Assembly (NCBI GenBank): GCA_964016885.1
Contig: OZ024757.1
Span: 35,650,001-35,714,000, forward strand
Source: Eledone cirrhosa
Taxonomy: Eukaryota
Direction: 5' to 3'
Length of the DNA: 64,000 bases
Shown here: piece after piece, positions 3,829-53,773 of the stretch
How the letters are laid out: every line of letters begins with the position of its first letter
How positions within the stretch are numbered: position 1 is the stretch's first letter
Made by a program: the position numbers and the translations under genes
Notes under the pieces: generated by a model
Seen by the model: only the letters and a program-made list of their open reading frames with translations
Databases searched by the model: none
Told to the model about the DNA's origin: nothing

Positions 3829-5347
<1,519 letters not shown>

Positions 5348-12630: not shown

Positions 12631-12932
12631 CGGGTAGCACACACATTTGGGACGACATACAACACATAAACAGGTAATCCACACATCTAGGACCACATAC
12701 AACACACAAGCGGGTATCACACACATCTGGGACTACATACAACACACCAACAGGTAATACATACATCTAGGACCACATAACCAGGTAATACACACATCTA
12801 GGACCACATACAACACATAAACAGGTAATACATACATCTAGAACCACATACAACACACAAGCAGGTAATATATACATCTAGGATCACATACAACACACAA
12901 GCAGGTAATACATCTAGGACCACATACAACCA
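12631..12932. repeat. 40-bp minisatellite, about 8 copies
   Basis: Unit CAGGTAATACACACATCTAGGACCACATACAACACACAAG at 12671, 12711, 12751, 12782, 12822, 12862 and 12902. Confidence 0.9.
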
Positions 12933-18907: not shown

Positions 18908-19335
18908 AGACACAGAGCCACCTAGGGTACAGATCTCAGTGAGATACCCAGCTACCTAGGGTACAGACCTTAGAGAGACACAGAGCCACCTAGGGTACAG
19001 ACCTTAGAGAGACACAGAGCCACCTAGGGTACAGACCTTAGAGAGACACAGAGCCACCTAGGGTACAGACCTTAGAGAGACACAGAGCCACCTAGGGTAC
19101 AGACCTTAGAGAGACACAGAGCCACCTAGGGTACAAACCTTAGAGAGACACAGAGCCACCTAGGGTACAGACCTTAGAGAGACACAGAGCCACCGAGGGT
19201 ACAGATCTTAGAGAGATACAGAGCCACCTAGGGTACAGACCTTAGAGAGACACAGAGCCACCTAGGGTACAGACCTCAGTGAGACACAGAGACACCTAGG
19301 GTAGAGAGAGACAGACAACCAGCTAGGGTACAGAC
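18908..19335. repeat. 34-bp minisatellite, about 12 copies
   Basis: Unit GACACAGAGCCACCTAGGGTACAGACCTTAGAGA, period 34 (18961 to 18995). Confidence 0.96.
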
Positions 19336-25196: not shown

Positions 25197-26430
25197 AGTT
25201 GACCTATACTAAAGGACTTCACTGATAGGGTTATATGTGTTATAGTTTCCCAGTTGACCTATACTAAAGGACTTCACTGATAGGGTTATATGTGTTATAG
25301 TTTCCCAGTTGACCTATACTAAAGGACTTCACTGATAGGGTTATATGTGTTATAATTTCCCAGTTGACCTATACTAAAGGACTTCACTGATAGGGTTATA
25401 TGTGTTATAGTTTCCCAGTTGACCTATACTAAAGGACTTCACTGATAGGGTTATATGTGTTATAGTTTCCCAGTTGACCTATACTAAAGAGCTTCACTGA
25501 TAGAGTTATATGTGTTATAGTTTCCCAGAGGGCTTCACTGATAGGGTTATATGTGTTATAGTTTCCCAGTTGACCTATACTAAAGGACTTCACTGATAGG
25601 GTTATATGTGTTATAGTTTCCCAGTTGACCTATACTAAAGGACTTCACTGATAGGGTTATATGTGTTATAGTTTCCCAGTTGACCTATACTAAAGGACTT
25701 CACTGATAGGGTTATATGTGTTATAATTTCCCAGTTGACCTATACTAAAGGACTTCACTGATAGGGTTATATGTGTTATAGTTTCCCAGTTGACCTATAC
25801 TAAAGGACTTCACTGATAGGGTTATATGTGTTATAGTTTCCCAGTTGACCTATACTAAAGAGCTTCACTGATAGAGTTATATGTGTTATAGTTTCCCAGA
25901 GGGCTTCACTGATAGGGTTATATGTGTTATAGTTTCCCAGTTGACCTATACTAAAGGACTTCACTGATAGGGTTATATGTGTTATAGTTTCCCAGTTGAC
26001 CTATACTAAAGGACTTCACTGATAGGGTTATATGTGTTATAGTTTCCCAGTTGACCTATACTAAAGGACTTCACTGATAGGGTTATATGTGTTATAGTTT
26101 CCCAGTTGACCTATACTAAAGGACTTCACTGATAGGGTTATATGTGTTATAGTTTCCCAGTTGACCTATACTAAAGGACTTCACTGATAGGGTTATATGT
26201 GTTATAGTTTCCCAGTTGACCTATACTAAAGGACTTCACTGATAGGGTTATATGTGTTATAGTTTCCCAGTTGACCTATACTAAAGGACTTCACTGATAG
26301 GGTTATATGTGTTATAGTTTCCCAGTTGACCTATACTAAAGGACTTCACTGATAGGGTTATATGTGTTATAGTTTCCCAGTTGACCTATACTAAAGGGCT
26401 TCACTGATAGAGTTATATGTGTTATAGTTT
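25197..26430. repeat. Second 55-bp satellite array, about 23 units including two 41-bp deletion units
   Basis: Same unit as 13376-16667. Confidence 0.97.
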
Positions 26431-27002
26431 GAAACAAACTACCCGCATCAGTTATTATACTTTTATAACACCGCTATATTACCTACATGAAAGAGGTAAA
26501 TATTTATTTCTCTTGTCTTCTTAAATGTATAGAACATTTTTCTTATATATATTCTTAACATAGCTAGGACCGTTTATTATTTACTAGTCTCTACTCCTAG
26601 GACTTTGCTGGTCTCATGTCCCCTCCATCAACACACACTCGGTAGAAAGCTAGTCGTCAGAGGTAAAGTGGCCCTGATTACAGGTCTAGTATTGAAGCCT
26701 TTCGGCTTGAGCCTTGCTGATGCCGACAGAGTTCCTGTGGTAGTTTTGGTAGCGCAGGTGACATTTTATTGTGTTTAGGTACCGGCTAGTGCGGACACAG
26801 AGAGCACAACCAGGTGGTGAGCTGGCAACGACCAAGTGTAGAGGGCCAGCTTTGAAATTCGAGCGACGGAGTGAACTAGTAAAAGAGGCAGGGTAAGCAG
26901 CATTGGTTCTAACGGTGGGACTAGAACGGAGGTTGGGTGGTGCTGGGGGTGGGCTAACAGCTAACAGTTGTAGGAGTGGTGGGGCTTTGCTAGGATTAAT
27001 TT

Positions 27003-29527
27003 TTACATCTGTCTGTGAACTCTTGAAAAAGCAACATACAATTGTCCAGGGTTAAATACTTGCTCAGGGAGGAACAGACCCACTTTATCATGTATTTGAC
27101 CATGGTTCTTGTTGATTGTCATGGCATATGACAGTCTTAATGGAAACTGGGGTCTTTCCAAAGTAAAAAGGATGTTGGCACCACTGGGGGCTAACTTCAG
27201 TCTTGGGATCAAAACACACCTGCCCATCAAAGGACCATAGATATGAGAAGCTTTGATAAAATGTTTATGCAGTTCTACTACTTCTAATCTTGTGCCATTA
27301 CATAATCTGTTCTGGATTGAAATATTCCATAGAAGCATTATTATTGATCCTGCTTTTAATTGGAGTTTGTGAGGCGGCATCCCAGAAGGTGTAAGCAAGT
27401 TCATTTAGCTTGAACCAGGCAGCAAGGGTCCCTGCATTTCTACCACAACCTGAGCATTGCCTCTTTGAAAGTAAACTCTGTTTGTTCTCCAGGTGTGTGG
27501 CTAGGCTGTATACTGTATGTGATGTACCATGAAGCTTAAATTCGGAGAGACACGACACTGCTTCTGGCTGAGACACATACCTGCAACAAAGATAGGTTCT
27601 TATTTCATCATGGTTGTGTTGGTTCTGAGCCTCATTAGGTAATGCATTATTCGTTACTTCTATAGATGTACAATCATGCCCCATGTAACATATTTAAAGA
27701 GGTACTTGACACTTTTTACAGAAGCGCAAACTTCAACATTAATATGTGCACAATATTTCTTAAGCAAAAAGGCATTAAATGGCACAACATTCCTGTTATC
27801 TACTGAATGTCATCCAATTTACACTGCAGTTCCTGTCTTGCACCTCCTGTACTCTGGGTATCCATTTAGGTTCAATAATGTTTCCCTTCTGTAGGTTTTT
27901 GGATAGTTCTTTTGGAAAAATCCATTTTGTATAAATGGGGGAAAAGGGTTTCCAGAACCACATGGCCCATGGATCATAAACTTTTAAACCTGCTCATGTA
28001 GTACTTGATCATCTTCCAATGCAGGTATTTCTGCTGACACGATTCTGTCAATGTCTTCTCTGTTTCTTATCTTGTCTTCATTTCTTAAGGCTCAGTGTTA
28101 TCATCTGTTTAGATAATTCATTAAACCATTATACTCATCCACTCACAATTGGGCTTGATTGTTCCTCAAATATTGAAGCCTGCATCCCTCTACTTTCATA
28201 TAGGCTTCCACTAAATACTGCTAAAATAATTTACCTGCCCTATATATCGCACTAAATCCTCCTCTATATGCTATACTGTATATGTAATACTCCTGCATTG
28301 TCAGTCTATTGCAAACACAGGTCCTGCATTCCTCTCCATGTCACTATGCCACCAAAATTCACCATTATGGGTCGGTCATGAGGTCCAAGTGGCATGAATT
28401 ATGTGATATTTTCTGAGGAGGATGGTCTTTAGGAAAGATGATAATATCTCTTTGTACAGGTGGTCTGCCCTCAATCCCCCACAAAACAACAGCTATCATT
28501 ACTAGTTGGTAAATTATAGCAGCTCATATCTGATCCTCTTCTAAATCTTAATTCACAGTTCTGTACACGACAATTTTCTCTTCTTGCACTTTGCTGTTTG
28601 ATGCCATTCATTGTATTGTACAATTCGACATATGGATTACATTCATGCAACACCTCTCTTATCATAGCCATTTTTTGTGGTGAGCACTCATTATTTGTTG
28701 GTACTAGGGCGGTGGATTGGCAGTATCGGTAGAGCGTCAGACACCATGCTTTGCAGCATAGGGTTATGGCCCTTTACGTTCTGGGTTCAAATCCCTCCAA
28801 GGTTGACTTTGTTTTCATCCTTATGAGGTCGATAGAATAAAGTACCAGTAATTGCTGGCCTTGTGCCGGAAACAATTATTTGGTCGTACTTCCAATCTGT
28901 GCTACACACCTTCGTTCCCATCAATAATATATAACTGGCCATATTGTGGTGTATTTTCTGCAGGTTACAGAGGTGGGGGTGTAGTGATATGTTTGACCCT
29001 GAATATGAAAGCTATACGGGCCTCTGCCGGGTGGTAACACCAAATGAAGTGAAATAAATGTAGTTTTAATTGCAGATGTTTCTGTGAAATCAACTGCTTC
29101 CTGGCCTCTTTCAAAGAGATTTCTCAGTCTCTCGGGGTATATTTGCAATGGTGGCAACACTACCTTTCCTTTATTACAACAGTTACAATTTTCATTTCTA
29201 AATTTCAAAGCTCCACAGTGATCACACGAAACATTCATATCACTAATATGAAATTCTTCTACATTTCCATTAATATTAATTGTTGGCCAATTTCTCTTAC
29301 GACGCTCATTATCCATTCTTCTCTGTCTGAATGTTTTCCATTCTAAGTCTATTTGCATGGAATAATTATATTCTGTTGTTTATTATGTAATTAAATAGCT
29401 CTGTACAATACATAGAGCATTCTTCTTTTCTTTACCTTTTCTATGGAAATACAAGAACAAACATATATATATATATATGTATATATGTGTGTATATACAT
29501 AAACAAGACTGTTATTACTCCAACCAG
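27003..29527 (-). mobile_element. Internally deleted, non-autonomous Helitron (RepHel pseudogene), copy 2
   Basis: Motifs in order on the minus strand: CDHCGALKF..CCNKGKV; GPYSFHIQGQTYH; LHECNPY; KLF*QYLVEAYMKVEGCRLQYLRNNQ; EDIDRIVSAEIP; MIHGPCG; HINVEVCASVKSVKYLFKYV.GHD (Rep tyrosine motif, ~27675-27746); DEIRTY..RYVS.PEA; then the PIF1-type C-terminus PSGMPPHKLQLK..LCNGTRL..QFPLRLSYAMTINK..GQLYVAFSRV. Confidence 0.95.
28706..28874 (+). mobile_element. tRNA-derived SINE nested in Helitron copy 2, with a 16-bp TSD
   Basis: A and B boxes as at 6078. Flanked by ATTATTTGTTGGTACT (28690-28705) and ATTATTTGGTCGTACT (28875-28890). Confidence 0.9.
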
Positions 29528-32500
29528 ATGAAACTCTGTCATGTAATGTTATGGACATCTCTGCCCCTGTGGCTAATAATTCTGTCATGTAATGTTATGG
29601 ACATCTCTGCCCCTGTGGCTAATAATTCTGACATGTAATGTTATGGACATCGCTGCCCCTGTGGCTAATAATTCTGACATGTAATGTTATGGACATCTCT
29701 GCCCTGTGGCTAATAATTCTGAGAGAGATGAAACACGTGAGGGATTAGAGAGAGATAAAACAAGTGAGGGATTAGAGTGTTGAAACAAGAGAGAGAGAGG
29801 AAGAGAGAGAGAGAGAGAGATGAAATGAGACAGGGAGAGCGAGATGAAACGCGAGAGTGAGAGAAGCGAGATGAAACGAGAGAGTGAGAGCGAGATGAAA
29901 CGAGAGAGAGAGAGAGCGAGATGAAACGAGACAGAGAGAGCGAGATTTAATGAGAGATAGAGAGAGAGAGAGCGGGATGGAACGAGACAGAGAGGAAACG
30001 AGAGAGAGAGGAAACGAGAGAGAGGAAACGAGAGTAGAGAGCGAGATGAAACAGGAGAGAGAGAGCGAGATGAAACGAGAGGGAGAGAGAGATGAAACGA
30101 GGGAGATAGAGATGAAACGAGAGAGAGGAAGAGAGAGATGGAACGAGAGAGAGGAAGACAGAGATGAAACGAGAGAGAGAGAGAGATGAAACGAGAGAGA
30201 GAGAGAGCGCGAGATGAAACGAGAGAGAGAGAGCGCGAGATGAAACGACAGAGAGAGAGACAGATGAAAGGAGGGAGATAGAGATGAAACGAGAGAGAGG
30301 AAGAGAGAGATGGAACGAGCGAGAGGAAGAGAGAGAGGAAGACAGAGATGAAACGAGAGAGAGCGAGATGAAACGAGAGAGCGAGATGAAACGAGAGAGA
30401 GAGAGAGCGAGATGAAACGAGAGAGAGGAAGAGAGAGAGCGCGAGATGAAACTCTGTCATGTAACGTTATGGACATATCTGCCCTTGGGGCTATAATTGT
30501 CATGTAATGTTATGGACATCTCTGCCCCTGTGGCTAATAATTCTGTCATGTAATGTTATGGAGATCTCTGCCCCTGTGGCTAATAATTCTTTCATGTAAT
30601 GTTATGGACATCTCGGCCCCTGTGGCAAATAATTCTGACATGTAATGTTATGGACATCTCTGCCCCTGTGGCTAATAATTCTGACATGTAATGTTATGGA
30701 CATCTCTGCCCCTGTGGCTAATAATTCTGACATGTAATGTTATGGACATCTCTGCCCTGTGGCTAATAATTCTGAGAGAGATGAAACACGTGAGGGATTA
30801 GAGAGAGATAAAACAAGTGAGGGATTAGAGTGTTGAAACAAGAGAGAGAGAGGAAGAGAGAGAGAGCGAGATGAAATGAGACAGGGAGAGCGAGATGAAA
30901 CGCGAGAGTGAGAGAAGCGAGATGAAACGAGAGAGTGAGAGCGAGATGAAACGAGAGAGAGAGAGAGCGAGATGAAACGAGACAGAGATAGCGAGATTTA
31001 ATGAGAGAGAGAGAGAGCGGGATGGAACGAGACAGAGAGGAAACGAGAGAGAGAGGAAACGAGAGAGAGGAAACGAGAGTAGAGAGCGAGATGAAACAGG
31101 AGAGAGAGAGCGAGATGAAACGAGAGGGAGAGAGAGATGAAATGAGGGAGATAGAGATGAAACGAGAGAGAGGAAGAGAGAGATGGAACGAGAGAGAGGA
31201 AGACAGAGATGAAACGAGAGAGAGCGAGATGAAACGAGAGAGAGAGAGCGCGAGATGAAACTCTGTCATGTAACGTTATGGACATATCTGCCCTTGGGGC
31301 TATAATTGTCATGTAATGTTATGGACATCTCTGCCCCTGTGGCTAATAATTCTGTCATGTAATGTTATGGACATCTCTGCCCCTGTGGCTAATAATTCTT
31401 TCATGTAATGTTATGGACATCTCGGCCCCTGTGGCTAATAATTCTGACATGTAATGTTATGGACATCTCTGCCCCTGTGGCTAATAATTCTGACATGTAA
31501 TGTTATGGACATCTCTGCCCTGTGTCTAATAATTCTGACATGTAATGTTATGGACATCTCTGCCCCTGTGGCTAATAATTCTGTCATGTAATGTTATGGA
31601 CATCTCTGCCCCTATGGCTAATAATTCTGACATGTAATGTTATGGACATCTCTGCCCCTGTGGCTAATAATTCTGCCATGTAATGTTATGGACATCTCTG
31701 CCCCTGTGGCTAATAATTCTGAGAGAGATGAAACAAGTGAGGGATTAGAGATAGATAAAACAAGTGAGGGATTAGAGTGTTGAAACAAGAGAGAGAGAGA
31801 GCGAGATGAAATGAGACAGGGAGAGCGAGATGAAACGCGCGAGTGAGAGAAGCGAGATGAAACGAGAGAGTGAGAGCGAGAGGAAACGAGAGAGAGAGAG
31901 AGCGAGATGAAACGAGACAGAGAGAGCGAGATGTAATGAGAGAGAGAGAGAGCGGGATGGAACGAGACAGAGAGGAAACGAGAGAGAGGAAACGAGAGTA
32001 GAGAGCGAGATGAAACGAGAGGGAGAGAGAGATGAAACGAGAGAGCGAGATAGAGATGAAACGAGAGAGAGGAAGAGAGAGATGGAACGAGAGAGAGGAA
32101 GACAGAGATGAAACGAGAGAGAGAGAGAGAGAGCGAGATGAAACGAGAGAGAGAGAGCGCGAGATGAAACGAGAGAGAGAGAGAGCGCGAGATGAAACGA
32201 GAGAGAGAGAGCGCGAGATGAAACGACAGAGAGAGAGACAGATGAAAGGAGGGAGATAGAGATGAAACGAGAGAGAGGAAGATAGAGATGGAACGAGAGA
32301 GAGCAAGATAGAGATGGAACGAGAGAGAGCAAGAGAGAGATGGAACGAGAGAGAGGAAGACAGAGATGAAACGAGAGAGAGAGAGAGCGAGATGAAACTC
32401 TGTCATGTAATGTTATGCACATATCTGCCCTTGGGGTTAATAATTGTCATGTAATGTTATGGACATCTCTGCCCCTGTGGCTAATAATTCTGTCATGTAA

Positions 32501-35500
32501 TGTTATGGACATCTCTGCCCCTGTGGCTAATAATTCTGAGAGAGATGAAACAAGTGAGGGATTAGAGAGACATAAAACAAGTGAGGGATTAGAGTGTTGA
32601 AACAAGAGAGAGAGAGAGCGAGATGAAATGAGACAGGGAGAGCGAGATGAAACGCGAGAGTGAGAGAAGCGAGATGAAACGAGAGAGTGAGAGCGAGATG
32701 AAACGAGAGAGAGAGAGAGCGAGATGAAACGAGACAGAGAGAGCGAGATGTAATGAGAGAGAGAGAGAGCGGGATGGAACGAGACAGAGAGGAAACGAGA
32801 GAGAGAGGAAACGAGAGAGAGGAAACGAGAGTAGAGAGCGAGATGAAACAGGAGAGAGAGAGCGAGATGAAACGAGAGGCAGAGAGAGATGAAACGAGGG
32901 AGAGGAAGAGAGAGATGGAACGAGAGAGAGGAAGACAGAGATGAAACGAGAGAGAGAGAGCGAGATGAAACGAGAGAGAGAGAGCGCGAGATGAAACGAG
33001 AGAGAGAGAGCGCGAGATGAAACGACAGAGAGAGAGACAGATGAAAGGAGGGAGATAGAGATGAAACGAGAGAGAGGAAGAGAGTGATGGAACGAGCGAG
33101 AGGAAGAGAGAGATGGAACGAGAGAGAGGAAGACAGAGATGAAACGAGAGAAAGCGAGATGAAACGAGAGAGCGAGATGAAACGGGAGAGAGAGCGAGAT
33201 GAAACGAGAGAGAGGGAAAGAGAGAGCGCGAGATGAAACTCTGTCATGTAATGTTATGGACATATCTGCCCTTGGGGCTAATAATTGTCATGTAATGTTA
33301 TGGACATCTCTGCCCCTGTGGCTAATAATTATGTCATGTAATGTGATGGACATCTCTGCCCCTGTGGCTAATAATTCTGTCATGTAATGTTATGGACATC
33401 TCTGCCCCTGTGGCTAATAATTCTGACATGTAATGTTATGGACATCTCTGCCCTGTGGCTAATAATTCTGACATGTAATGTTATGGACATCTCTGCCCCT
33501 GTGGCTAATAATTCTGAGAGAGATGAAACAAGTGAGAGATTAGAGAGAGATAAAACAAGTGAGGGATTAGAGTGTTGAAACAAGAGAGAGAAAGAGCGAA
33601 ATGAAATGAGACAGGGAGAGCGAGATGAAACGCGAGAGTGAGAGAAGCGAGATGAAACGAGAGAGTGAGAGCGAGATCAAACGAGAGAGAGAGAGAGCGA
33701 GATGAAACGAGACAGAGAGGAAACGAGAGAGAGGAAACGAGAGTAGAGAGCGAGATGAAACAGGAGAGAGAGAGCGAGATGAAACGAGAGGGAGAGAGAG
33801 ATGAAACGAGAGAGCGACAGAGAGATGAAAGGAGGGAGATAGAGATGAAACGAGAGAGAGGAAGAGAGAGATGGAACGAGAGAGAGGAAGAGTGAGATGG
33901 AACGAGAGAGAGGAAGACAGAGATGAAACGAGAGAGAGAGAGAGCGAGATGAAATAAGGGAGAGAGAGCGCAAGATGAAACGAGAGAGAGAGAGCGCGAG
34001 ATGAAACGACAGAGAGAGAGACAGATGAAAGGAGTGAGATAGAGATGAAACGAGAGAGAGGATGAGAGAGATGGAACGAGAGAGAGGAAGAGAGAGATGG
34101 AACGAGAGAGAGGAAGACAGAGATGAAACGAGAGAGAGAGAGAGCGAGAGGAAACGAGAGAGAGAGAACGCAAGATGAAACGAGAGAGAGAGAGCGCGAG
34201 ATGAAACTGTCATGTAATGTTATTGCCATATCTGCCCCTGTGGCTAATAATTGTCATGTAATGTTATGGTCATCTCTGCCCCTGTGGCTAATAATTCTGT
34301 CATGTAATGTTATGGACATCTCTGCCACTGTGGCTAATAATTCTGAGAGAGATGAAACAAGTTAGAGATTAGAGAGAGATAAAACAAGTGAGGGATTAGA
34401 GTGTTGAAACAAGAGAGAGAGAGGAAGAGAGAGAAAGAGCGAAATGAAATGAGACAGGGAGAGCGAGATGAAACGCGAGAGTGAGAGAAGCGAGATGAAA
34501 CGAGAGAGTGAGAGCGAGATCAAACGAGAGAGAGAGAGAGCGAGATGAAACGAGACAGAGAGGAAACGAGAGAGAGGAAACGAGAGTAGAGAGCGAGATG
34601 AAACAGGAGAGAGAGAGCGAGATGAAACGAGAGGGAGAGAGAGATGAAACGAGAGAGCGACAGAGAGATGAAAGGAGGGAGATAGAGATGAAACGAGAGA
34701 GAGGAAGAGAGAGATGGAACGAGAGAGAGGAAGAGTGAGATGGAACGAGAGAGAGGAAGACAGAGATGAAACGAGAGAGAGAGAGAGCGAGATGAAATAA
34801 GGGAGAGAGAGCGCAAGATGAAACGAGAGAGAGAGAGCGCGAGATGAAACGACAGAGAGAGAGACAGATGAAAGGAGTGAGATAGAGATGAAACGAGAGA
34901 GAGGAAGAGAGAGATGGAACGAGAGAGAGGAAGAGAGAGATGGAACGAAAGAGAGGAAGACAGAGATGAAACGAGAGAGAGAGAGAGCGAGAGGAAACGA
35001 GAGAGAGAGAGCGCAAGATGAAACGAGAGAGAGAGAGCGCGAGATGAAACTGTCATGTAATGTTATTGCCATATCTGCCCCTGTGGCTAATAATTGTCAT
35101 GTAATGTTATGGTCATCTCTGCCCCTGTGGCTAATAATTCTGTCATGTAATGTTATGGACATCTCTGCCCCTGTGGCTAATAATTCTGACATGTAATGTT
35201 ATGGACATCTCTGCCCCTGCGGCTAATAATTCTGACATGTAATGTTATGGTCATCTCTGCCCCTGTGGCTAATAATTCTGAGAGAGATGAAACAAGTGAG
35301 GGATTAGAGTGTTGAAACAAGAGAGAGAGAGAGCGAGATGAAATGAGAGAGTGAGAGCGAGATGAAACGAGAGAGTGAGAGCGAGATGAAACGAGAGAGA
35401 GAGAGCGAGATGAAATGAGAGAGAGAGAGCGAGATGAAATGAGACAGAGAGAGAACGAGATGAAACGAGAGAGTGAGAGCGAGATGAAACGAGAGAGTGA

Positions 35501-36536
35501 GAGCGAGATGAAACGAGAGAGAGAGAGCGAGATGAAATGAGAGAGAGAGAGCGAGATGAAATGAGAGAGAGAGAGCGAGATGAAACGAGACATAGAGAGA
35601 ACGAGATGAAACGAGAGAGTGAGAGCGAGATGAAACGAGAGAGAGAGAGCGCGAGATGAAACGGGAGGGAGAGAGAGATGAAACGAGAGAGAGAGGAAAC
35701 GAGAGTAGAGAGCGAGATGAAACAGGAGAGAGAGAGAGCGAGATGAAACAGGAGAGAGAGAGCGAGATGAAACGAGAGGGAGAGAGAGATGAAACGAGAG
35801 AGCGAGAGAGAGATGAAACGAGGGAGATAGAGATGAAACGAGAGAGAGGAAGAGAGAGATGGAACGAGAGAGAGGAAGACAGAGATGGAACGAGAGAGAG
35901 GAAGACAGAGATGAAACGAGAGAGAGAGAGAGCGAGATGAAACAGGAGAGAGAGAGCGAGATGAAACGAGAGGGAGAGAGAGATGAAACGAGAGAGCGAG
36001 AGAGAGATGAAACAAGGGAGATAGAGATGAAACGAGAGAGAGGAAGAGAGAGATGGAACGAGAGAGTGGAAGAGAGAGATGGAACGAGAGAGAGGAAGAC
36101 AGAGAAGAAACGAGAGAGAGAGAGCGCAAGATGAAATGAGAGAGAGAGAGCGCGAGATGAAACGACAGAGAGAGAGACAGATGAAAGGGGGGAGATAGAG
36201 ATGAAACGAGAGAGAGGAAGAGAGAGATGGAACGAGAGAGAGGAAGAGAGAGATGGAACGAGAGAGAGGAAGACAGAGATGAAACGAGAGAGAGAGCGAG
36301 ATGAAACGGGAGAGAGAGAGCGCAAGATGAAACGAGAGAGAGCGCGAGATGAAACTCTGTCATGTAATGTTATTGACATATCTGCCCCTGTGGCTAATAA
36401 TTGTCACGTAATGTTATGGTCATCGCTGCCCCTGTGGCTAATAATTCTGTCATGTAATGTTATGGACATCTCTGCCCTTGTGGCTAATAATTCTGACATG
36501 TAATGTTATGGACATCTCTGCCCCTGTGGCTAATAA
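29527..36536 (+). repeat. Compound satellite, GA orientation: 46-bp minisatellite blocks alternating with GAGATGAAAC(GA)n blocks
   Basis: 46-mer CATGTAATGTTATGGACATCTCTGCCCCTGTGGCTAATAATTCTGW (period 29540 to 29586). GA blocks start GAGAGAGATGAAACA.GTGAG.GATTAGAG and mostly end GCGAGATGAAACTCTGT. Confidence 0.97.
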
Positions 36537-36543
36537 ATCAGAA

Positions 36544-39500
36544 TTATTAGCCACAGGGGCAGAGATGTCCATAACATTACATGTCAGAATTATTAGCCAC
36601 AGGGGCAGAGATGTCCATAACATTACATGTCAGAATTGTTAGCCACAGGGGCAGAGATGTCCATAACATTACATGTCAGAATTATTAGCCACAGGGGCAG
36701 AGATGTCCATAACATTACATGTCAGAATTATTAGCCAGAGGGGCAGAGATGTCCATAACATTACATGACAGAATTATTAGCCACAGGGGCAGATATGTCC
36801 ATAACATTACATGACAGACTTTCATCTCGCGCTCTCTCTCTCTCTCTCGTTTCATCTCGCGCTCTTTCTCTTCCTCTCTCTCGTTTCATCTCGGTCTCTC
36901 TATCGTTTCATCTCGCGTTCACTCTCTTCCTCTCTCTCGTTTCATCTCGCTCTCTCTCTCTCTCGTTTCATCTCTGTCTTCCTCTCTCTCGTTCCATCTC
37001 TCTCTCCCTCTCTCTCGTTCCACCTCTATCTTCCTCTCTCTCGTTTCCTCTCTCTCGTATCCTCTCTCTCGTTTCCTCTCTCTCTCGTTTCCTCTCTCTC
37101 TCGTTTCCTCTAGCTCTCTCTCTCTCGTTTCATCTCGCTCTCTCTCTCTCATTTCATCTCGCTCTCTCTCTCTCGTTTCATCTTGCTCTCTCTGTCTCGT
37201 TTCATTTCGCTCTCTCTCTCTCTCATTTCATCTCGCTCTCTCTATCTCGTTTCATCCCGCTCTCTCTGTCTCGTTTCATCTCGCTCTCTCTCTCTCATTT
37301 CATCTCGCTCTCTCTCTCTCATTTCATCTCGCTCTCACTCTCTCATTTCATCTCGCTCTCTCTCTCTCGTTTGATCTCGCTCTCACTCTCTCTTCCTCCC
37401 TCTCTCTTGTTTCAACACTCTAATCCCTCACTTGTTTCATCTCTCTCAGATTTATTAGCCACAGGGGCAGAGATGTCCATAACATTACATGACAGAATTA
37501 TTAGCCACAGGGGCAGAGATGTCCATAACACTACATGACATAATTATTAGCCACAGGGGCAGAGATGTCCATAACATTACATGACAGAATTATTAGCCAC
37601 AGGGGCAGAGATGTACATAACATTACATGACAATTATTAGCCCCAAGGGCAGATATGTCCATAACATTACATGACAATTATTAGCCCCAAGGGCAGATAT
37701 GTCCATAACATTACATGACAGACTTTCATCTCGCGCTCTCTCTCTCTCGTTTCATCTCGCCCTCTCTCTCTTCCTCTCTCTCGTTTCATCTCGCACTCTC
37801 TCTCTCTCGTTTCATCTCGCGCTCTCTCTCTTCCTCTCTCTCGTTTCATCTCGCTCTCTCTCTCTCTCGTTTCATCTTTGTCTTCCTCTCTCTCGTTCCA
37901 TTTCTCTCTTCCTCTCTCTCTCGTTCCATCTCTCTCTCGTTTCATCTAGCTCTCACTCTCTCGTTTCATCTCGCTCTCTCGTTTCATCTCTATCTCCCTC
38001 GTTTCATCTGTCTCTCTCTCTGTCGTTTCATCTCCCTCTATCTCTCTCTCGCTCTCTCGTTTTATCTCTCCCTCCCTCTCGTTTCATCTCGCTCTCTCAC
38101 TCCTGTTTCATCTCGCTCTCTCTCTCCTGTTTCATCTCGCTCTCTACTCTCGTTCCATCTCTCTCTCGTTTCATCTAGCTCACACTCTCTCGTTTCATCT
38201 CGCTCTCTCTGTCTCGTTCCATCTCACTCTTTCTGTCTCGTTTCATCTCGCTCTCTCTCTCTCATTTCATCTCGCTCTCTCTCTCTCTCTCGTTTCATCA
38301 CGCGCTCTCTCTCTTCCTCTCTCTCTTTTCATCTCTCTCTCTCTCTCTCCTTTCATCTCTGTCTTTCTCTCTCTCGTTCCATCTCTCTCTTCCTCTCTCT
38401 CGTTCCATCTCTCTCTTCCTCTCTCTCGTTTCATCTCTCTCTCTCGTTTCATCTCTATCTCCCTCGTTTCAGCTGTCTCTCTCTCTGTCGTTTCATCTCC
38501 CTCTATCTCTCTATCGCTCTCTCGTTTCATCTCTCTCTCCCTCTCGTTTCATCTCGCTCTCTCTCTCCTGTTTCATCTCGCTCTCTCTCTCTCCTGTTTC
38601 ATCTCGCTCTCTACTCTCGTTTCCTCTCTCTCGTTTCCTCTCTCTCTCGTTTCCTCTCTCTCTCGTTTTATGTAGCTCTCACTCTCTCGTTTCATCTCGC
38701 TCTCTCTCTCTCATTTCATCTCGCTCTCTCTCTCTCGTTTCATCTCGCTCTCTCTATCTCGTTTCATCTCGCTCTCTCTGTCTCTCATTTCATCTCGCTC
38801 TCTCTGTCTCGTTTCATCCCGCTCTCTCTGTCTCGTTTCATCTCGCTCTCTCTCTCTCATTTCATCTCACTCTCTCTCTCTCATCTCGCTCTCTCTCTCT
38901 CGTTTTATCTCGCTCTCACTCTCTCATTTCATCTCGCTCTCTCTCTCTCGTTTGATCTCGCTCTCACTCTCTCTTCCTCTTTCTCTCTTGTTTCAACACT
39001 TTAATCCCTCACTTGTTTCATCTCTCTCTAATCCCTCACTTGTTTCATCTCTCTCAGAATTATTAGCCACAGGGGCAGAGATGTCCATAACGTTACATGT
39101 CAGAAATTATTAGCCACAGGGGCAGAGATGTCCATAACATTACATGTCAGAATTATTAGCCACAGGGGCAGAGATGTCCATAACATTACATGACAGATTT
39201 ATTAGCCACAGGGGCAGAGATGTCCATAACATTACATGACGAATTTATTAGCCACAGGGGCAGAGATGTCCATAATATTACATTACAGAATTGTTAGCCA
39301 CAGGGGCAGAGATGGCCATAACATTACATGACAGAATTATTAGCCACAGGGGCAGAGATGTCCATAACATTACATGACAATTATTAGCCCCTAGGGCAGA
39401 TATGTCCATAACATTACTTGACAGACTTTCATCTGGCGCTCTCTCGTTTCATCTCGCGCTCTCTCTCTTCCTCTCTCTCGTTTCATCTCACTCTCTCTCT

Positions 39501-42500
39501 CTCTCGTTTCATCTCGCACTCTCTCTCTTCCTCTCTCTCGTTTTATCTTGCTCTCTCTCTCTCTCGTTTCATCTCTGTCTTCCTCTCTCTCGTTCCATCT
39601 CTCTCTTCCTCTCTCTCGTTTAATCTCTCTCTCTCGTTTCATCTCTATCTCCCTCGTTTCATCTGTCTCTCTTTCTGTCGTTTCATCTCCCTCTATCTCT
39701 CTCTCGCTCTCTCGTTTCATCTCTCTCTCCCTCTCGTTTCATCTCGCTCTCTCTCTCCTGTTTCATCTCGCTCTCTCTCTCCTGTTTCATCTCGCTCTCT
39801 ACTCTCGTTTCCTCTCTCTCGTATCCTCTCTCTCGTTTCCTCTCTCTCTCGTTTCCTCTCTCTCTCGTTTCCTCTAGCTCTCACTCTCTCGTTTCATCTC
39901 GCTCTCTCTCTCTCATTTCATCTCGCTCTCTCTCTCTCGTTTCATCTCGCTCTCTCTGTCTCGTTTCATTTCGCTCTCTCTCTCTCTCATTTCATCTCGC
40001 TCTCTCTGTCTCGTTTCATCCCGCTCTCTCTGTCTCCTTTCATCTCGCTCTCTCTCTCGCATTTCATCTCGCTCTCTCTCTCTCATTTCATCTCGCTCTC
40101 TCTCTCTCGTTTCATCTCGCTCTCACTCTCTCATTTCATCTCGCTCTCTCTCTCGTTTGATCTCGCTCTCACTCTCTCTTCCTCTCTCTCTCTTGTTTCA
40201 ACACTCTAATCCCTCACTTGTTTCATCTCTCTCTTATCCCTCACTTGTTTCATCTCTCTCAGAATTATTAGCCACAGGGGCAGAGATGTCCATAACATTA
40301 CATGTCAGAATTATTAGCCACAGGGGCAGAGATGTCCATAACATTACATGACAGATTTATTAGCCACAGGGGCAGAGATGTCCATAACATTACATGACGA
40401 ATTTATTAGCCACAGGGGCAGAGATGTCCATAACATTACATGACAGAATTATTAGCCACAGGGGCAGAGATGTCCATAACATTACATGACATAATTATTA
40501 GCCACAGGGGCAGAGATGTCCATAACATTACATGACAGAATTATTAGCCACAGGGGCAGATATGTCCATAACATTACATGACAATTATTAGCCCCAAGGG
40601 CAGATATGTCCATAACATTACATGAGAGACTTACATCTCACGCTCTCTCTCTCTCGTTTCATCTCGCTCTCTCTCTCTCTCGTTTCAACTTTGTCTTCCT
40701 CTCTCTCGTTCCATCTCTCTCTTCCTCTCTCTCTCGTTCCATCTCTCTCTCGTTTCATCTAGCTCTCACTCTCTCGTTTCATCTCGCTCTCTCTGTCTCG
40801 TTCCATCTCGCTCTCTCTCTCTCGTTTCATCTCTATCTCCCTCGTTTCATCTGTCTCTCTCTCTGTCGTTTCATCTCCCTCTATCTCTCTCTCGCTCTCT
40901 CGTTTCATCTCTGCCTCCCTCTCGTTTCATCTCGCTCTCTCACTCCTGTTTCATCTCGCTCTCTCTCTCCTGTTTAATCTCGCTCTCTACTCTCGTTCCA
41001 TCTCTCTCTCGTTTCATCTAGCTCTCACTCTCTCGTTTCATCTCGCTCTCTCTGTCTCTCATTTCATCTCGATCTCTCTGTCTCGTTTCATCCCGCTCTC
41101 TCTCTCTCGTTTCATCTCACTCTCACTCCATCTCGCTCTCTCTCTCTCGTTTCATCTCGCGCTCTCTCTCTTCCTCTCTCTCGTTTCATCTCGCTCTCTC
41201 TCTCTCTCTCGTTTCATCACGCGTTCTCTCTCTTCCTCTCTCTCGTTTCATCTCTCTCTCTCTCTCTCTCTCGTTTCATCTCTGTCTTCCTCTCTCTCGA
41301 TCCATCTCTCTCTTCCTGTCTCTCGTTCCATCTCTCTCTTCCTCTCTCTCGTTTCATCTCTATCTCCCTCGTTTCATCTGTCTCTCTCTCTGTCGTTTCA
41401 TCTCCCTCTATCTCTCTCTCGCTCTCTCGTTTCATCTCTCTCTCCCTCTCGTTTCATCTCGCTCTCTCTCTCCTGTTTCATCTCGCTCTCTACTCTCGTT
41501 TCCTCTCTCTCGTTTCCTCTCTCTCATTTCCTCTCTCTCTCGTTTCCTCTCTCTCTCGTTTCATCTGGCTCTCACTCTCTCGTTTCATCTCGCTCTCACT
41601 CTCTCATTTCATCTCGCTCTCTCTCTCTCATTTCATCTCGCTCTCTCTCTCTCGTTTCATCTCGCTCTCACTCTCTCATTTCATCTCGCTCTCTCTCTCT
41701 CGTTTGATCTCGCTCTCACTCTCTCTTCCTCTCTCTCTCTTGTTTCAACACTCTAATCCCTCACTTGTTTCATCTCTCTCAGAATTATTAGCCACAGGGG
41801 CAGAGATGTCCATAACATTACATGTCAGAATTATTAGCCACAGGGGCAGAGATGTCCATAACATTACATGACAGATTTATTAGCCACAGGGGCAGAGATG
41901 TCCATAACATTACATGACGAATTTATTAGCCACAGGGGCAGAGATGTCCATAATATTACATTACAGAATTATTAGCCACAGGGGCAGAGATGTCCATAAC
42001 ATTACATGACAATTATTAGCCCCTAGGGCAGATATGTCCATAACATTACTTGACAGACTTTCATCTGGCGCTCTTTCGTTTCATCTCGCGCTCTCTCTCT
42101 TCCTCTCTCTCGTTTCATCTCGCACTCTCTCTCTTCCTCTCTCTCGTTTTATCTTGCTCTCTCTCTCTCTCGTTTCATCTCTGTCTTCCTCTCTCTCGTT
42201 CCATCTCTCTCTTCCTCTCTCTCGTTTCATCTCTCTCTCTCGTTTCATCTCTATCTCCCTCGTTTCATCTGTCTCTCTCTCTGTCGTTTCATCTACCTCT
42301 ATCTCTCTCTCGCTCTCTCGTTTCATCTCTCTCTCCCTCTCGTTTCATCTCGCTCTCTCTCTCCTGTTTCATCTCGCTCTCTCTCTCCTGTTTCATCTCA
42401 CTCTCTACTCTCGTTTCCTCTCTCTCGTATCCTCTCTCTCGTTTCCTCTCTCTCTCGTTTCCTCTCTCTCTCGTTTCCTCTAGCTCTCACTCTCTCGTTT

Positions 42501-45500
42501 CATCTCGCTCTCTCTCTCTCATTTCATCTCGCTCTCTCTCTCTCGTTTCATCTCGCTCTCTCTGTCTCGTTTCATTTCGCTCTCTCTCTCTCTCATTTCA
42601 TCTCGCTCTCTCTGTCTCGTTTCATCCCGCTCTCTCTGTCTCCTTTCATCTCGCTCTCTCTCTCTCATTTCATCTCGCTCTCTCTCTCTCATTTCATCTC
42701 GCTCTCTCTCTCTCGTTTCATCTCGCTCTCACTCTCTCATTTCATCTCGCTCTCTCTCTCGTTTGATCTCGCTCTCACTCTCTCTTCCTCTCTCTCTCTT
42801 GTTTCAACACTCTAATCCCTCACTTGTTTCATCTCTCTCTTATCCCTCACTTGTTTCATCTCTCTCAGAATTATTAGCCACAGGGGCAGAGATGTCCATA
42901 ACATTACATGTCAGAATTATTAGCCACAGGGGCAGAGATGTCCATAACATTACATGACAGATTTATTAGCCACAGGGGCAGAGATGTCCATAACATTACA
43001 TGACGAATTTATTAGCCACAGGGGCAGAGATGTCCATAACATTACATGACAGAATTATTAGCCACAGGGGCAGAGATGTCCATAACATTACATGACATAA
43101 TTATTAGCCACAGGGGCAGAGATGTCCATAACATTACATGACAGAATTATTAGCCACAGGGGCAGATATGTCCATAACATTACATGACAATTATTAGCCC
43201 CAAGGGCAGATATGTCCATAACATTACATGACAGACTTACATCTCACGCTCTCTCTCTCTCGTTTCATCTCGCTCTCTCTCTCTCTCTCTCGTTTCATCA
43301 CGCGTTCTCTCTCTTCCTCTCTCTCGTTTCATCTCTCTCTCTCTCTCTTCCTCTCTCTCGTTTCATCTCTCTCTCTCTCTCTCTCTCGTTTCATCTCTGT
43401 CTTCCTCTCTCTCGTTCCATCTCTCTCTTCCTGTCTCTCGTTCCATCTCTCTCTTCCTCTCTCTCGTTTCATCTCTATCTCCCTCGTTTCATCTGTCTCT
43501 CTCTCTGTCGTTTCATCTCCCTCTATCTCTCTCTCGCTCTCTCGTTTCATCTCTCTCTCCCTCTCGTTTCATCTGGCTCTCTCTCTCCTGTTTCATCTCG
43601 CTCTCTACTCTCGTTTCCTCTCTCTCGTTTCCTCTCTCTCGTTTCCTCTCTCTCTCGTTTCCTCTCTCTCTCGTTTCATCTGGCTCTCACTCTCTCGTTT
43701 CATCTCGCTCTCACTCTCTCATTTCATCTCGCTCTCTCTCTCTCATTTCATCTCGCTCTCTCTCTCTCGTTTCATCTCGCTCTCACTCTCTCATTTCATC
43801 TCGCTCTCTCTCTCTCGTTTGATCTCGCTCTCACTCTCTCTTCCTCTCTCTCTCTTGTTTCAACACTCTAATCCCTCACTTGTTTCATCTCTCTCAGATT
43901 TATTAGCCACAGGGGCAGAGATGTCCATAACATTACATGACGAATTTATTAGCCACAGGGGCAGAGATGTCCATAACATTACATGACAGAATTATTAGCC
44001 ACAGGGGCAGAGATGTCCATAACATTACATGACATAATTATTAGCCACAGGGGCAGAGATGTCCATAACATTACATGACAGAATTATTAGCCACAGGGGC
44101 AGAGATGTACATAACATTACATGACAGTTATTAGCCCCAAGGGCAGATATGTCCATAATATTACATGACAATTATTAGCCCCAAGGGCAGATATGTCCAT
44201 AACATTACATGACAGACTTTCATCTCGCGCTCTCTCTCTCTCTCGTTTCATCTCGCCCTCTCTCTCTTCCTCTCTCTCGTTTCATCTCGCTCTCTCTCTC
44301 GTTTCATCTCGCGCTCTCTCTTTTCCTCTCTCTCGTTTCATCTCGCTCTCTCTCTCTCTCGTTTCATCTTTGTCTTCCTCTCTCTCGTTCCATTTCTCTC
44401 TTCCTCTCTCTCTCGTTCCATCTCTCTCTCGTTTCATCTCGCTCTCTCGTTTCATCTCTATCTCCCTCGTTTCATCTGTCTCTCTCTCTGTCATTTCATC
44501 TCCCTCTATCTCTCTCTCGCTCTCTCGTTTCATCTCTCCCTCCCTCTCGTTTCATCTCGCTCTCTCACTCCTGTTTCATCTCGCTCTCTCTCTCCTGTTT
44601 CATCTCGCTCTCTACTCTCGTTCCATCTCTCTCTCGTTTCATCTAGCTCACACTCTCTCGTTTCATCTCGCTCTCTCTGTCTCGTTCCATCTCGCTCTCA
44701 CTCTCTCGTTTCATCTCGCTCTCTCTGTCTCTCATTTCATCTCGATCTCTCTGTCTCGTTATATCCCGCTCTTTCTGTCTCTTTTCATCTCGCTCTCTCT
44801 CTCTTATTTCATCTCGCTCTCTCTCGTTTCATCTCACTCTCACTCTCTCATTTCATCTCGCGCTCTCTCTCTCTCGTTTCATCTCGCGCTCTCTCGTTTC
44901 ATCTCGCTCTCGCTCTCTCTCTCTCTCTTGTTTCATCTCGCGCTCTCTCTCTTCTTCTCTCTCGTTTCATCTCGCTCTCTCTCTCTCTCGTTTCAACTTT
45001 GTCTTCCTCTCTCTCGTTCCATCTCTCTCTTCCTCTCTCTCTCGTTCCATCTCTCTCTCGTTTCATCTAGCTCTCACTCTCTCGTTTCATCTCGCTCTCT
45101 CTGTCTCGTTCCATCTCGCTCTCTCTCTCTCGTTTCATCTCTATCTCCCTCGTTTCATCTGTCTCTCTCTCTGTCATTTCATCTCCCTCTATCTCTCTCT
45201 CACTCTCCCGTTTCATCTCTACCTCCCTCTCGTTTCATCTCGCTCTCTCACTCCTGTTTCATCTCGCTCTCTCTCTCCTGTTTAATCTCGCTCTCTACTC
45301 TCATTCCATCTCTCTCTCGTTTCATCTAGCTCTCACTCTCTCGTTTCATCTCGCTCTCTCTGTCTCTCATTTCATCTCGATCTCTCTGTCTCGTTTCATC
45401 CCGCTCTCTCTCTCTCGTTTCATCTCACTCTCACTCTCTCATTTCATCTCGCTCTCTCTCTCTCATTTCATCTCGCGCTCTCTCTCTTCCTCTCTCTCTT

Positions 45501-45874
45501 TTCATCTCGCTCTCTCTCTCTCTCTCGTTTCATCACGCGTTCTCTCTCTTCCTCTCTCTCGTTTCATCTCTCTCTCTCGTTTCATCTCTATCTCCCTCGT
45601 TTCATCTGTCTCTCTCTCTGTCGTTTCATCTCCCTCTATCTCTCTCTCGCTCTCTCGTTTCATCTCTCTCTCCCTCTCGTTTCAACTCGCTCTCTCTCTC
45701 CTGTTTCATCTCGCTCTCTCTCTCTCCTGTTTCATCTCGCTCTCTACTCTCGTTTCCTCTCTCTCGTTTCCTCTCTCTCTCGTTTCCTCTCTCTCTCGTT
45801 TCATTTAGCTCTCACTCTCTCGTTTCATCTCGCTCTCTCTCTCTCATTTCATCTCGCTCTCTCTCTCTCGTTTC
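36544..45874 (-). repeat. Compound satellite, inverted (CT) orientation
   Basis: Reverse complement of the 46-mer (TTATTAGCCACAGGGGCAGAGATGTCCATAACATTACATG) and GTTTCATCTC(TC)n blocks. Confidence 0.97.
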
Positions 45875-46722
45875 CATAGAAAAGGTAAAGAAAAGAAGAA
45901 TGCTCTATGTATTGTACAGAGCTATTTAATTACATAATAAACAACAGAATATAATTATTCCATGCAAATAGACTTAGAATGGAAAACATTCAGACAGAGA
46001 AGAATGGATAATGAGCGTCGTAAGAGAAATTGGCCAACAATTAATATTAATGGAAATGTAGAAGAATTTCATATTAGTGATATGAATGTTTCGTGTGATC
46101 ACTGTGGAGCTTTGAAATTTAGAAATGAAAATTGTAACTGTTGTAATAAAGGAAAGGTTGTGTTGCCACCATTGCAAATATACCCTGAGAGACTGAGAAA
46201 TCTCTTTGAAAGAGGCCAGGAAGCAGTTGATTTCACAGAAACATCTGCAATTAAAACTACATTTATTTCACTTCATTTGGTGTTACCACCCGGCAGAGGC
46301 CCGTATAGCTTTCATATTCAGAGTCAAACATATCACTACACCCCCATCTCTGTAACCTGCAGAAAATACACCACAATATGGCCAGTTATATATTATTGAT
46401 GGGAACGAAGGTATGTAGCACAGATTGGAAGTACAACCAAATAATTGTTTCTGGCACAAGGCCAGCAATTACTGGTACTTTATTCTATCGACCTCATAAG
46501 GATGAAAACAAAGTCAACCTTGGAGGGATTTGAACCCAGAACGTAAATGGCCATAACCCTATGCTGTAAAGCATGGTGTCTGGCGCTCTACCGATACTGC
46601 CAATCCACTGCCCTAGTACCAACAAATAATGACTGCTCACGACAAAAAATGGCTATGATAAGAGAAGTGTTGCATGAATGTAATCCATATGTCGAAGTGT
46701 ACAATACAATGCATGGCATCAC
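45871..46722 (+). mobile_element. Helitron RepHel 5' fragment, copy 3 (inverted relative to copy 2)
   Basis: ORF 45962-46399 is almost identical to 28921-29358(-). It continues to MAMIREVLHECNPYV and is truncated at a (TA)n run. Confidence 0.93.
46446..46614 (-). mobile_element. tRNA-derived SINE nested in Helitron copy 3
   Basis: Same insertion site as in copies 1 and 2. TSD AGTACAACCAAATAAT (46430-46445) and AGTACCAACAAATAAT (46615-46630), 14/16 identical. Confidence 0.9.
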
Positions 46723-47283
46723 AAATGAATATATATATATATATATATATATATACTACTAAAGTGTATGTAAAATTTTAAAATAAATACTTAAATTCAA
46801 TTTGTATAATTACACATACAATATGTTTTGTTGTAAAACCCTAAATAATGATTTAAGAAATGATGTCAATCTCTTTGTACAGAGAAAAACAATTTATATA
46901 TATGCATTGTGTGCGCGTGTATACTCCATTTAAGACAGTGAAAAACCTAGTACCTCCTTCAAAGAATGCCAAATAGTTTATGCCTAAGGTGTAACACTAA
47001 TTAAGTTACCGGTGTAGATATTTCAGTTGAACCCTGCTTCAAACATGCATATTACTATTATATATTTTCAAACACACTTACATACGTTATATTTATACAC
47101 ATAGAAATAATAAGTTAAAACTAAAGTATAATGATATAACAACAGTATATAATAGTTTTCTTCACTTTATTGAGATGCAATCGTTTTAAAGAAAAAACAT
47201 GACAGTATAAGAAATATTTAATATGAGAACATAATATTTCAGGTAGGATGGTGGTTTCTCTATGATGGTGGTTTCTCTTTGAA

Positions 47284-47457
47284 CTAATAATTGTTTCTAT
47301 TTTAGGCACAAGGTCAGTAATTAACCAGTACATTACTGGTACTTTATTTTATCGACCCCGTAAGGATGAAAGGCAAAGTTGACCTCGGATCGTAAAGGGA
47401 CGTAACTATGCTGGAAAGCATGGCGTCAGACCCTCTACCGATACTGCCAATTCACCA
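47284..47457 (-). mobile_element. Independent copy of the same tRNA-derived SINE family
   Basis: GGCACAAGG..CTGGTACTTTATTTTATCGACCCCGTAAGGATGAAAGGCAAAGTTGACCTCGG..CTCTACCGATACTGCCAATTCACC. Confidence 0.85.
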
Positions 47458-47649
47458 TACAGTATAATTATACAAATATGCATATAGATAGCAATATATA
47501 TACACTAATATGTATGTACATATTTACACATATGTACATATATATAGGGAGAGAGGGAGACACATGTATGTATATATATATACACATGCGTGTATGCATG
47601 TGTGTTTATGTACATTCTTCGGTATATATATCGGTATACACATTGGAGA

Positions 47650-47882
47650 CACAGAGAGAGAGAGTTGAAACGAGAGGTGAGAGAGAGAGTTGAAACGAGG
47701 AGAGAGTTGAAACGAGGAGAGAGTTTAAATAAGAGGGTGAGGGGAGAGAGGAAGAGAGAGAGAGGGGATGAGAGAGAGGAAGAGAGAGAGAGAGGGGAAG
47801 AGAGAGAGAGGGAGAGAAGGGGATGAAACAAGAGGGTGAGGGATGAAACAACAGAGAGAGGGGAGAGAAAGAGAGAGGGGAT

Positions 47883-47930
<48 letters not shown>

Positions 47931-53766: not shown

Positions 53767-53773
53767 ATCAGAA

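Follow-up and report, generated by a model that had tools for sequence, protein, structure and literature searches.

A compound satellite that turns head-to-head at a fixed 25-base junction, bordered by Helitron fragments, recurs on three chromosomes

The window analysed here, a stretch of 64,000 nucleotides (C18:35650001-35714000 of a 3.0-Gb assembly), holds an 18-kb inverted structure in which a compound satellite turns head-to-head between two fragments of Helitron transposons. This structure is probably one cassette of a macro-repeat, whose satellite turns at a single fixed 25-base junction (J2) for which a single origin is likely, either in a template switch of the fold-back kind or from a hairpin-capped break, with a likely spread by unequal crossing-over and segmental duplication, with the Helitron fragments as likely passengers. 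The same flip junction is present 66 times, on three chromosomes (C18, C20 and C25) and on the unplaced contig C644, which points to one ancestral event carried by the repeat unit and not to a local accident.

Coordinates are those of the window unless a contig is named. HEL denotes the Helitron copy 2 type, U the Helitron fragment lineage to which copy 3 belongs, X1 the native continuation of copy 1, A(+) and A'(-) the satellite arms, and R130 and R150 two short interspersed repeats; J1 to J6 are junctions.

Layout of the inverted structure

The 18-kb inverted Helitron-satellite layout proposed in the first-pass annotation is real, as indicated by self-BLAST, coding sense, GC (guanine-cytosine) skew and satellite strand. 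By coding sense, the 5′ sides of copy 2 (minus strand) and copy 3 (plus strand) face each other over the satellite, and a composition profile places the switch in GC skew at the satellite flip. Both joins described between Helitron and satellite are seen in an alignment (A1), where copy 2 meets the satellite at CCAACCAG followed by ATGAAAC (29527) and copy 3 joins it 78 bp further in through GAAA (TTTC on the plus strand). The flip that had been placed between the two copies lies at 36537, but it is not alone, since the window contains a second, identical flip at 53767. The features of the structure and of the satellite that follows it are:

26431-29527, minus strand: Helitron copy 2 (HEL), a RepHel pseudogene whose last ~58 bp are a truncated R130
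29518-29538, plus strand: J1, the breakpoint between CCAACCAG and ATGAAAC plus 46-mer, with AG common to both sides and the break at 29527/29528
29528-36536, plus strand: satellite arm A(+), with 46-mer runs, two 27-mers and GA-rich 24/26-mers (reported from 29532 by Tandem Repeats Finder)
36528-36552, plus strand: J2, the head-to-head fold-back junction GGCTAATAA-ATCAGAA-TTATTAGCC, with the flip at 36537
36538-45870, minus strand: satellite arm A'(-), which mirrors A(+) over the first ~180 bp only
45863-45883, minus strand: J3, from GA-rich satellite to the equivalent of Helitron position 29449 via GAAA/TTTC (...CTATGGAAA followed by CGAGAG)
45871-46721, plus strand: Helitron fragment copy 3, U lineage, with R150 inserted at about 46440-46624
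46722-47650, plus strand: U spacer, AT-rich, with (AT)n at 46729-46755 and a second, diverged R150 copy at 47325-47456
47638-47667, plus strand: J4, the transition from spacer to GA-rich repeats (GTTGAAAC variants)
47653-53766, plus strand: next satellite arm A(+)
53758-53782, plus strand: second J2 copy in the window, with the flip at 53767
53768-64000, minus strand: next satellite arm A'(-), which continues to about 67218 and is followed by an inverted U

The head-to-head junction

J2 is one fixed 25-mer, found as 66 exact copies (16 on C18, 13 on C20, 35 on C25 and 2 on C644), and the reversed-pattern control gave no match for any of the exact searches with J1 to J6. Save for one mismatch, a known monomer variant, its two sides form a palindrome that reaches to within one base of the centre. 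It fits a presumed TC/GA overlap at TCTGA, a quasi-palindrome in the 46-mer. When the 364 bases around it were folded as DNA, the energy was -189 kcal/mol (z -36.7). This near-central symmetry keeps the fold-back origin suggested in the first-pass annotation as the likeliest one, but the Helitron-satellite unit proposed there as the piece that folded does not stand, as J1 is a breakpoint within R130 (see below).

Maps were made of 264 kb of C18 around the window, of 50 kb on C20 and 100 kb on C25, of C644, and of three outlying loci. Along the C18 map the satellite turns from (+) to (-) five times, at 36537, 53767, 78929, 121625 and 148811, and all five flips use the J2 sequence, the copy at 78929 as its reverse complement. 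The arms on either side vary in length, from 2.8 to 15.8 kb on the left and from 5.5 to 15.3 kb on the right; those on C20 measure 2.8-7.8 kb against 5.5-7.4 kb, and those on C25 9.8-10.7 kb against 13.0-15.3 kb. The two arms also carry different monomer variants on C20 and C25, where monomers of the (-) arm have T>A at position 46 at a frequency of 0.29-0.30 against 0.04-0.06, and C>T at position 2 at 0.15-0.18 against 0-0.02. No such arm difference was found in the monomer variants on C18.

The macro-repeat on C18, C20 and C25

The chain on C18 runs from HEL through A(+), the flip at 36537, A'(-) and U (45871-47650) into a further A(+), the flip at 53767 and its A'(-). It continues with an inverted U (~67218-69018), A(+), the flip at 78929, A'(-) and another inverted U (~89976-91814), after which X1 and other satellites follow. 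The whole pattern is repeated 86.5 kb away, with HEL at 113422-116049, flips at 121625 and 148811, and U at 131121. The arrangement of the copy 2-copy 3 type recurs four times on C18, where tandem copies of a U-A-J2-A' sub-unit succeed each other every 22-26 kb or so; on this chromosome a minority of the junctions (2 of 16 J2 and 1 of 10 J3) have the other orientation. A one-step history of this sub-unit, either a deletion or a fold-back with U as the loop, was considered and rejected, each version fitting some units and not all.

Three of the four cassettes mapped on C20 and C25 read X1-X2-40-mer-55-mer-HEL-J1-A(+)-J2-A'(-)-J4'-spacer-Helitron fragment (28599-29527, direct)-X1. The fourth, on C25, has X1 (901 bp)-J5-A' (234 bp)-J6 as its left border in place of J1. 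Each of the four cassettes has its distal Helitron fragment direct, not inverted, and this fragment meets the satellite via its truncated 3′ side and the spacer, not via its 5′ side. The U lineage is likewise direct, with its other side in contact with the satellite, at 90924 on C18 and at the sampled C1 locus, which has no fold. J2 is also found behind left borders other than the Helitron HEL, namely J6 and U. After U, a short tandem duplication is present at C20:27110033-27117375 and at 32313-38395 of the C25 map, and the duplicated piece consists of Helitron 29106-29527 and the first 1.4 kb of X1.

The remaining junctions trace the same unit. J1 has 35 exact copies (4 on C18, 10 on C20 and 21 on C25), and in a DNA search across this junction 37 of 40 scored places span it. 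J3 has 10 exact copies, all on C18; it is a secondary, C18-specific junction at which a U element was joined to GA-rich satellite. J4 has 51 (19 on C18, 8 on C20 and 24 on C25, including outlying copies at C18:25.0 Mb and C25:14.7 Mb). J5, which joins X1 position 7763 to the 46-mer(-), has 26 (2 on C1, 5 on C18, 2 on C20, 15 on C25 and 2 on C644), with matches at C1:212.6 Mb and C18:25.0 Mb among them. J6 is the tail-to-tail turn from 46-mer(-) to 46-mer(+) and has 16 exact copies (14 on C25, 1 on C18 and 1 on C20); on C25 every J6 sits 232 bp from a J5. All exact junction matches are confined to C1, C18, C20, C25 and C644, in clusters spanning about 0.9 Mb on C18, 0.6 Mb on C20 and 2.6 Mb on C25, and the sampled loci all have the same junctions and neighbouring sequences. 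A marker for the compound satellite gave 562 matches, of which the 100 listed fall on C18, C20 and one C1 locus.

Arrays without the fold-back exist as well. At C1:212.6 Mb, 9-kb single-orientation arrays lie between J5 and a J4-type spacer border, and at C18:25.0 Mb each of the two sampled units holds a single compound unit of 0.76 kb, bounded by J5 and the spacer; J1 and J2 are absent from both places. U and the border between spacer and satellite are thus present at loci without the fold-back and would be older than it. The units at C18:25.00-25.11 Mb contain 4.5 46-mers, two 27-mers and 0.55 kb of GA-rich repeats, and could be a seed state or collapsed arrays.

The C25 cluster (C25:26.48-29.09 Mb) consists of two inverted blocks, with minus-strand junctions up to 27.97 Mb and plus-strand junctions from 28.64 Mb. 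Between them, four of four sampled 10-kb pieces (28.17-28.37 Mb) are pure 80-bp satellite in one orientation, with 90% matches inside the one array analysed with Tandem Repeats Finder. Two inverted blocks around an 80-bp satellite make this a centromere-like layout.

J1 lies within an interspersed repeat

Two further features of the window bear on J1:

5359-6863, minus strand: Helitron fragment copy 1, which passes directly into X1 at 6864 (self-BLAST, tblastn)
6805-6930: the short interspersed repeat R130 in copy 1, spanning the CCAACCAG point at 6863

Helitrons have TC at the 5′ terminus and CTRR with a hairpin at the 3′ terminus. On the 5′ side no such terminus is found here, as CCAACCAG reads CTGG... 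on the sense strand and is enclosed in an interspersed repeat that runs on beyond it. When the 17 bases up to and including CCAACCAG, extended by 15 free positions, were used as a pattern, the genome gave 318 matches; among the first 100 of these matches listed, 46 are on 13 contigs away from the known loci, and nearly all of the 46 run on into variants of TCTATTCACCATCGA, the beginning of X1. Ten dispersed loci were fetched, and in all ten the similarity to the window is limited to a stretch of about 72-130 bp that crosses 6863. In a second alignment (A2), copy 1 is collinear with eight dispersed copies across the point where CCAACCAG passes into TCTATT, and copy 2 departs exactly there. R130, ~100-130 bp long, runs through CCAACCAG uninterrupted in copy 1 as well as in all 10 of the 10 dispersed loci, and it follows that the J1 satellite junction is a breakpoint and that CCAACCAG is not a Helitron end; it lies inside R130. 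The sequence after 6863 in copy 1, earlier taken to be unrelated, is by this collinearity the native continuation X1. In many cases (TA)n or (CA)n stands in front of R130.

Helitron fragments and their lineages

Their homology to a Rep/helicase protein marks copies 2 and 3 as dead fragments of a Helitron gene. One of the seven open reading frame (ORF) pieces contains a Pif1_2B domain (Pfam, E 5.3e-14), and the other six have no Pfam match at E ≤ 0.01. The N-terminal piece is 55% identical to P0001, its sole relative among 84 candidates, a protein of 1530 amino acids with Helitron_like_N and PIF1 domains. In tblastn, copy 2 retains P0001 residues 148-512, 633-867 and 1367-1498, encoded on the minus strand and broken by stops and frameshifts, and copy 3 retains only about residues 148-340.

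Self-BLAST aligns positions 27960-29527 of copy 2 with copy 1 (5359-6863) in the same orientation at 95-96% identity, and copy 3 (45871-46721) with 29449-28599 of copy 2 in inverted orientation, over 851 bp at 98.1%. Copy 2 is 100% identical to its counterpart 86.5 kb away. The suggestion that copy 3 is not a fresh mirror image of copy 2 is borne out in a maximum-likelihood tree of 17 Helitron copies (745 columns), in which the J3-type copies, copy 3 included, group with the U copies of C18, C20 and C25 (support 96/92). The J1-bearing copies, copy 2 among them, and one full-length C25 copy that keeps X1 form the other group, with weak support (75/94). Diagnostic variants are common to copy 3, the other J3-type copies and the U copies of the three chromosomes, and copy 3 and the J3-type copies also share the U truncation at 28599, the (AT)n, the spacer and the J4 transition from spacer to satellite. 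Copy 3 is thus not a mirror image of copy 2 and belongs to the U lineage. The peptides that had been pointed out were checked, and QKQLFGC is indeed present in copies 1 and 3, and RKQLFGR in copy 2. A 30-bp indel is polymorphic inside the U lineage.

R150 is a very high-copy repeat of ~150 bp within the Helitron ORF (46440-46624, and also 28706-28858), with a contig word depth of up to ~1.4 million in run X3; it is present in five of ten dispersed loci. A 132-bp piece in the U spacer was considered as a Helitron remnant and rejected, being a copy of this repeat. AT microsatellites abut the truncated end of copy 1, with ~2.6 kb of (TATA)n at 1786-4342 and 0.55 kb of (AT)n at 4800-5346.

Origin of the cassette and alternative explanations

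An order of events can be proposed by parsimony from the junction content of the loci. The ancestral state would be a single-orientation array between X1 (at J5) and the spacer (at J4). Two template switches within this array would have produced J6 (tail-to-tail) and J2 (head-to-head, with TC/GA microhomology), and a deletion at AG microhomology would have given J1. On C18, a junction at GAAA microhomology may then have created J3 and the U-A-J2-A' sub-unit, which would have been amplified in tandem, and recombination between inverted arms could finally have flipped U and J2 in some copies. The arms would have changed length and period independently because unequal exchange acts only between direct repeats.

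Several points weigh against the fold-back cassette and its history as proposed. The arms mirror each other over only ~180 bp, and farther out their periods and lengths differ, a pattern that long independent turnover would be expected to leave; the fold-back reading thus rests on the symmetry of the junction, with a two-break inversion as a formal alternative. Of the 10 J3 units, nine have the opposite orientation to U in the sampled C20 and C25 cassettes, so a deletion model would need an extra early flip, and only the unit 53767-78929 is mirror-symmetric about U, the other units being otherwise arranged. Beyond the mapped stretches, the architecture of most cassettes was deduced from junction coordinates, and the junction counts are exact-pattern matches in one assembly and hence lower bounds. 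An assembly gap of 200 N lies at -1806 to -1607 (C18:35648194-35648393), 1.6 kb left of the window, and the local copy number should therefore be handled cautiously. Contigs bridging J2 or J3 by 31 bases on both sides were not seen among the listed contigs of public runs, which are short Logan contigs only. R130 might also belong to the leader of this Helitron family, although this is unlikely.

The first-pass annotation had proposed that a Helitron with the satellite at its 5′ end formed a head-to-head dimer by fold-back, with copy 3 as a diverged mirror of copy 2. The local layout fits this proposal, as the two copies turn their 5′ sides towards each other, the satellite is attached to both in the same relative orientation and turns a single time between them, copies 2 and 3 are 98.1% alike, and the arrangement recurs four times on C18. 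However, CCAACCAG is inside another repeat and is not a Helitron end, copy 3 carries the U-lineage variants together with the U truncation point, spacer and J4, and U is direct both at the sampled fold-free C1 locus and in those cassettes of C20 and C25 that were sampled. With J2 present 66 times on three chromosomes and C644, the event is neither local nor recent. Since, in addition, J3 is found on C18 only, and J2 also stands behind the non-Helitron left borders J6 and U, we consider such a dimer very unlikely. An artefact of assembly, in which palindromic chimeric long reads or mis-joins made the inversions, might be suspected in a region this repetitive, with an N gap 1.6 kb off, no bridging contigs seen in public runs, and a copy 2 that is 100% identical to the copy 86.5 kb away. 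Yet breaks in chimeric reads would fall at random positions and the arms would be perfect mirrors, which is not seen; instead there are 66 occurrences of the same 25-mer, on one unplaced contig besides the three chromosomes, with differing arm lengths and arm-specific variants, and an artefact is scarcely credible.

Repeated breakage-fusion-bridge cycles, in which each flip would be an independent fold-back, could account for arms that alternate head-to-head and tail-to-tail and for the position of the C25 cluster near a contig end. Independent cycles predict differing breakpoints, but only one J2 sequence and one J6 sequence were found, each in many copies, so the ladder of flips reflects amplification of one event and recurrent cycles appear highly improbable. 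A proposal of a different kind, compatible with the favoured origin by a single fold-back, is that the dyad layout is kept by selection as a chromatin- or centromere-related architecture, an idea put forward for Tribolium and cichlids. The inversion point and the borders are conserved while repeat number varies, as in Tribolium (PMC13081366), and the two macro-repeat blocks of C25 are inverted around the 80-bp satellite region. Against this, the clusters are on three chromosomes only, and conservation of the junctions is expected from recent amplification alone, with copies differing by about 2% or less; by analogy, selection would be a minor, doubtful possibility.

Comparison with known systems

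Template switching at microhomology makes fold-back inversions and inverted duplications or triplications, as in human DUP-TRP/INV-DUP rearrangements and in the first step of breakage-fusion-bridge cycles. J2 resembles such fold-back inverted duplications in being near-spacerless, with a microhomology of 2 nt (by the presumed overlap), in having a companion, J6, 232 bp from the array edge, and in being accompanied by further junctions with 2-4 nt of microhomology. Unlike the human cases, the event here took place inside a satellite, is old, and is itself now a unit of a tandem macro-repeat.

In the Drosophila element DINE-TR1, a tandem array reportedly adjoins the 5′ part of a rolling-circle transposon. 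The array described here is likewise next to 5′ Helitron sequence, as it is in DINE-TR1 and, reportedly, in oyster Cg_HINE (PMC7492417). Unlike in those elements, it lies outside the element; in the sampled arrangements without J1, 901 bp of X1 on one side and the spacer on the other separate it from the Helitron. Its arrays are 3-16 kb and not short, and among the sampled and listed loci no dispersed insertions carry the array. The earlier comparison with Helitron-borne arrays of the DINE-TR1 kind does not fit, the array being outside the element and not dispersed with the Helitron.

The closest parallel in overall design may be drawn with Tribolium madens, T. castaneum and T. freemani, where a published report describes macro-dyad satellite cassettes with inverted subarrays of several kb to tens of kb, inversion sites and zones of transition that are conserved, variable repeat number and predicted long hairpins, and states that such symmetries are documented only in Tribolium (PMC13081366). 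As in that report, inverted subarrays on the kb scale lie within one array (arms of 2.8-15.8 kb), an inversion-site sequence is conserved in many copies (66 of J2, and 16 of a second type, J6), and the borders are conserved (35 copies of J1, 51 of J4 and 26 of J5) while the repeat number inside them varies. The differences are of scale and content: dozens of cassettes on three chromosomes here versus thousands on all of them, clusters of 0.6-2.6 Mb and no multi-megabase (peri)centromeric blocks on all chromosomes, a cassette that lies within a 20-90-kb macro-repeat alongside other satellites and dead transposon pieces, a satellite that is compound (46-mer, 27-mer and GA-rich), and a host that is mollusc-like.

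The "centroid" centromeres of cichlids have satellite blocks of alternating orientation split by an inverted pair of transposon-derived elements, which carry a degraded transposase gene (PMC13652916). Likewise here, non-satellite elements with a degraded transposon gene border arrays of alternating orientation, and diverged satellite copies lie at the element edge, in our case at J4. In comparison with cichlids, the inverted pair (J1...J3) is found here on C18 only, the pair in the sampled C20 and C25 cassettes being direct, and the elements are ~1.8-3 kb and Helitron-derived versus 15 kb and PiggyBac-derived; the likeness is one of layout.

Judged by title, the satellite is described in none of the papers listed on cephalopod Helitrons and satellite DNA, nor in the 12 listed out of 500 on octopus tandem repeats. 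The 46-mer and the Helitron piece both occur in public sequencing runs under four organism labels.

Implications

The notion of a Helitron-driven inversion of a satellite is replaced by that of one fold-back inside a satellite, which turned into a macro-satellite's repeat unit, now on several chromosomes. According to a statement of 2026, only Tribolium was known to combine conserved inversion points with variable arms (PMC13081366). A second and unrelated animal lineage would now join it, in which it can be tested whether such symmetry merely accompanies amplification or is selected as a feature of chromatin. The six diagnostic junction sequences (J1-J6) can be used to order events across related species. 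It is also conceivable, although we regard it as unlikely, that this octopus-like genome evolved dyad-symmetric cassettes with a fixed inversion point and fixed transposon-derived borders independently of flour beetles and cichlids, and that the inverted megabase-scale blocks of C25 around the 80-bp satellite are laid out as in a regional centromere. In that case the recurrent, selected feature of (peri)centromeric DNA in animals would be dyad symmetry and not sequence.

Other satellites in the window

A 55-bp satellite occupies 13376-16667 (60 copies, 98% matches), with a second, shorter array at 25197-26430. Satellites of 40, 61 and 34 bp lie at 12639-12930, 17011-18351 and 18882-19307, respectively. 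All four, the 55-, 40-, 61- and 34-bp satellites, recur in macro-repeat units of C18, C20 and C25.

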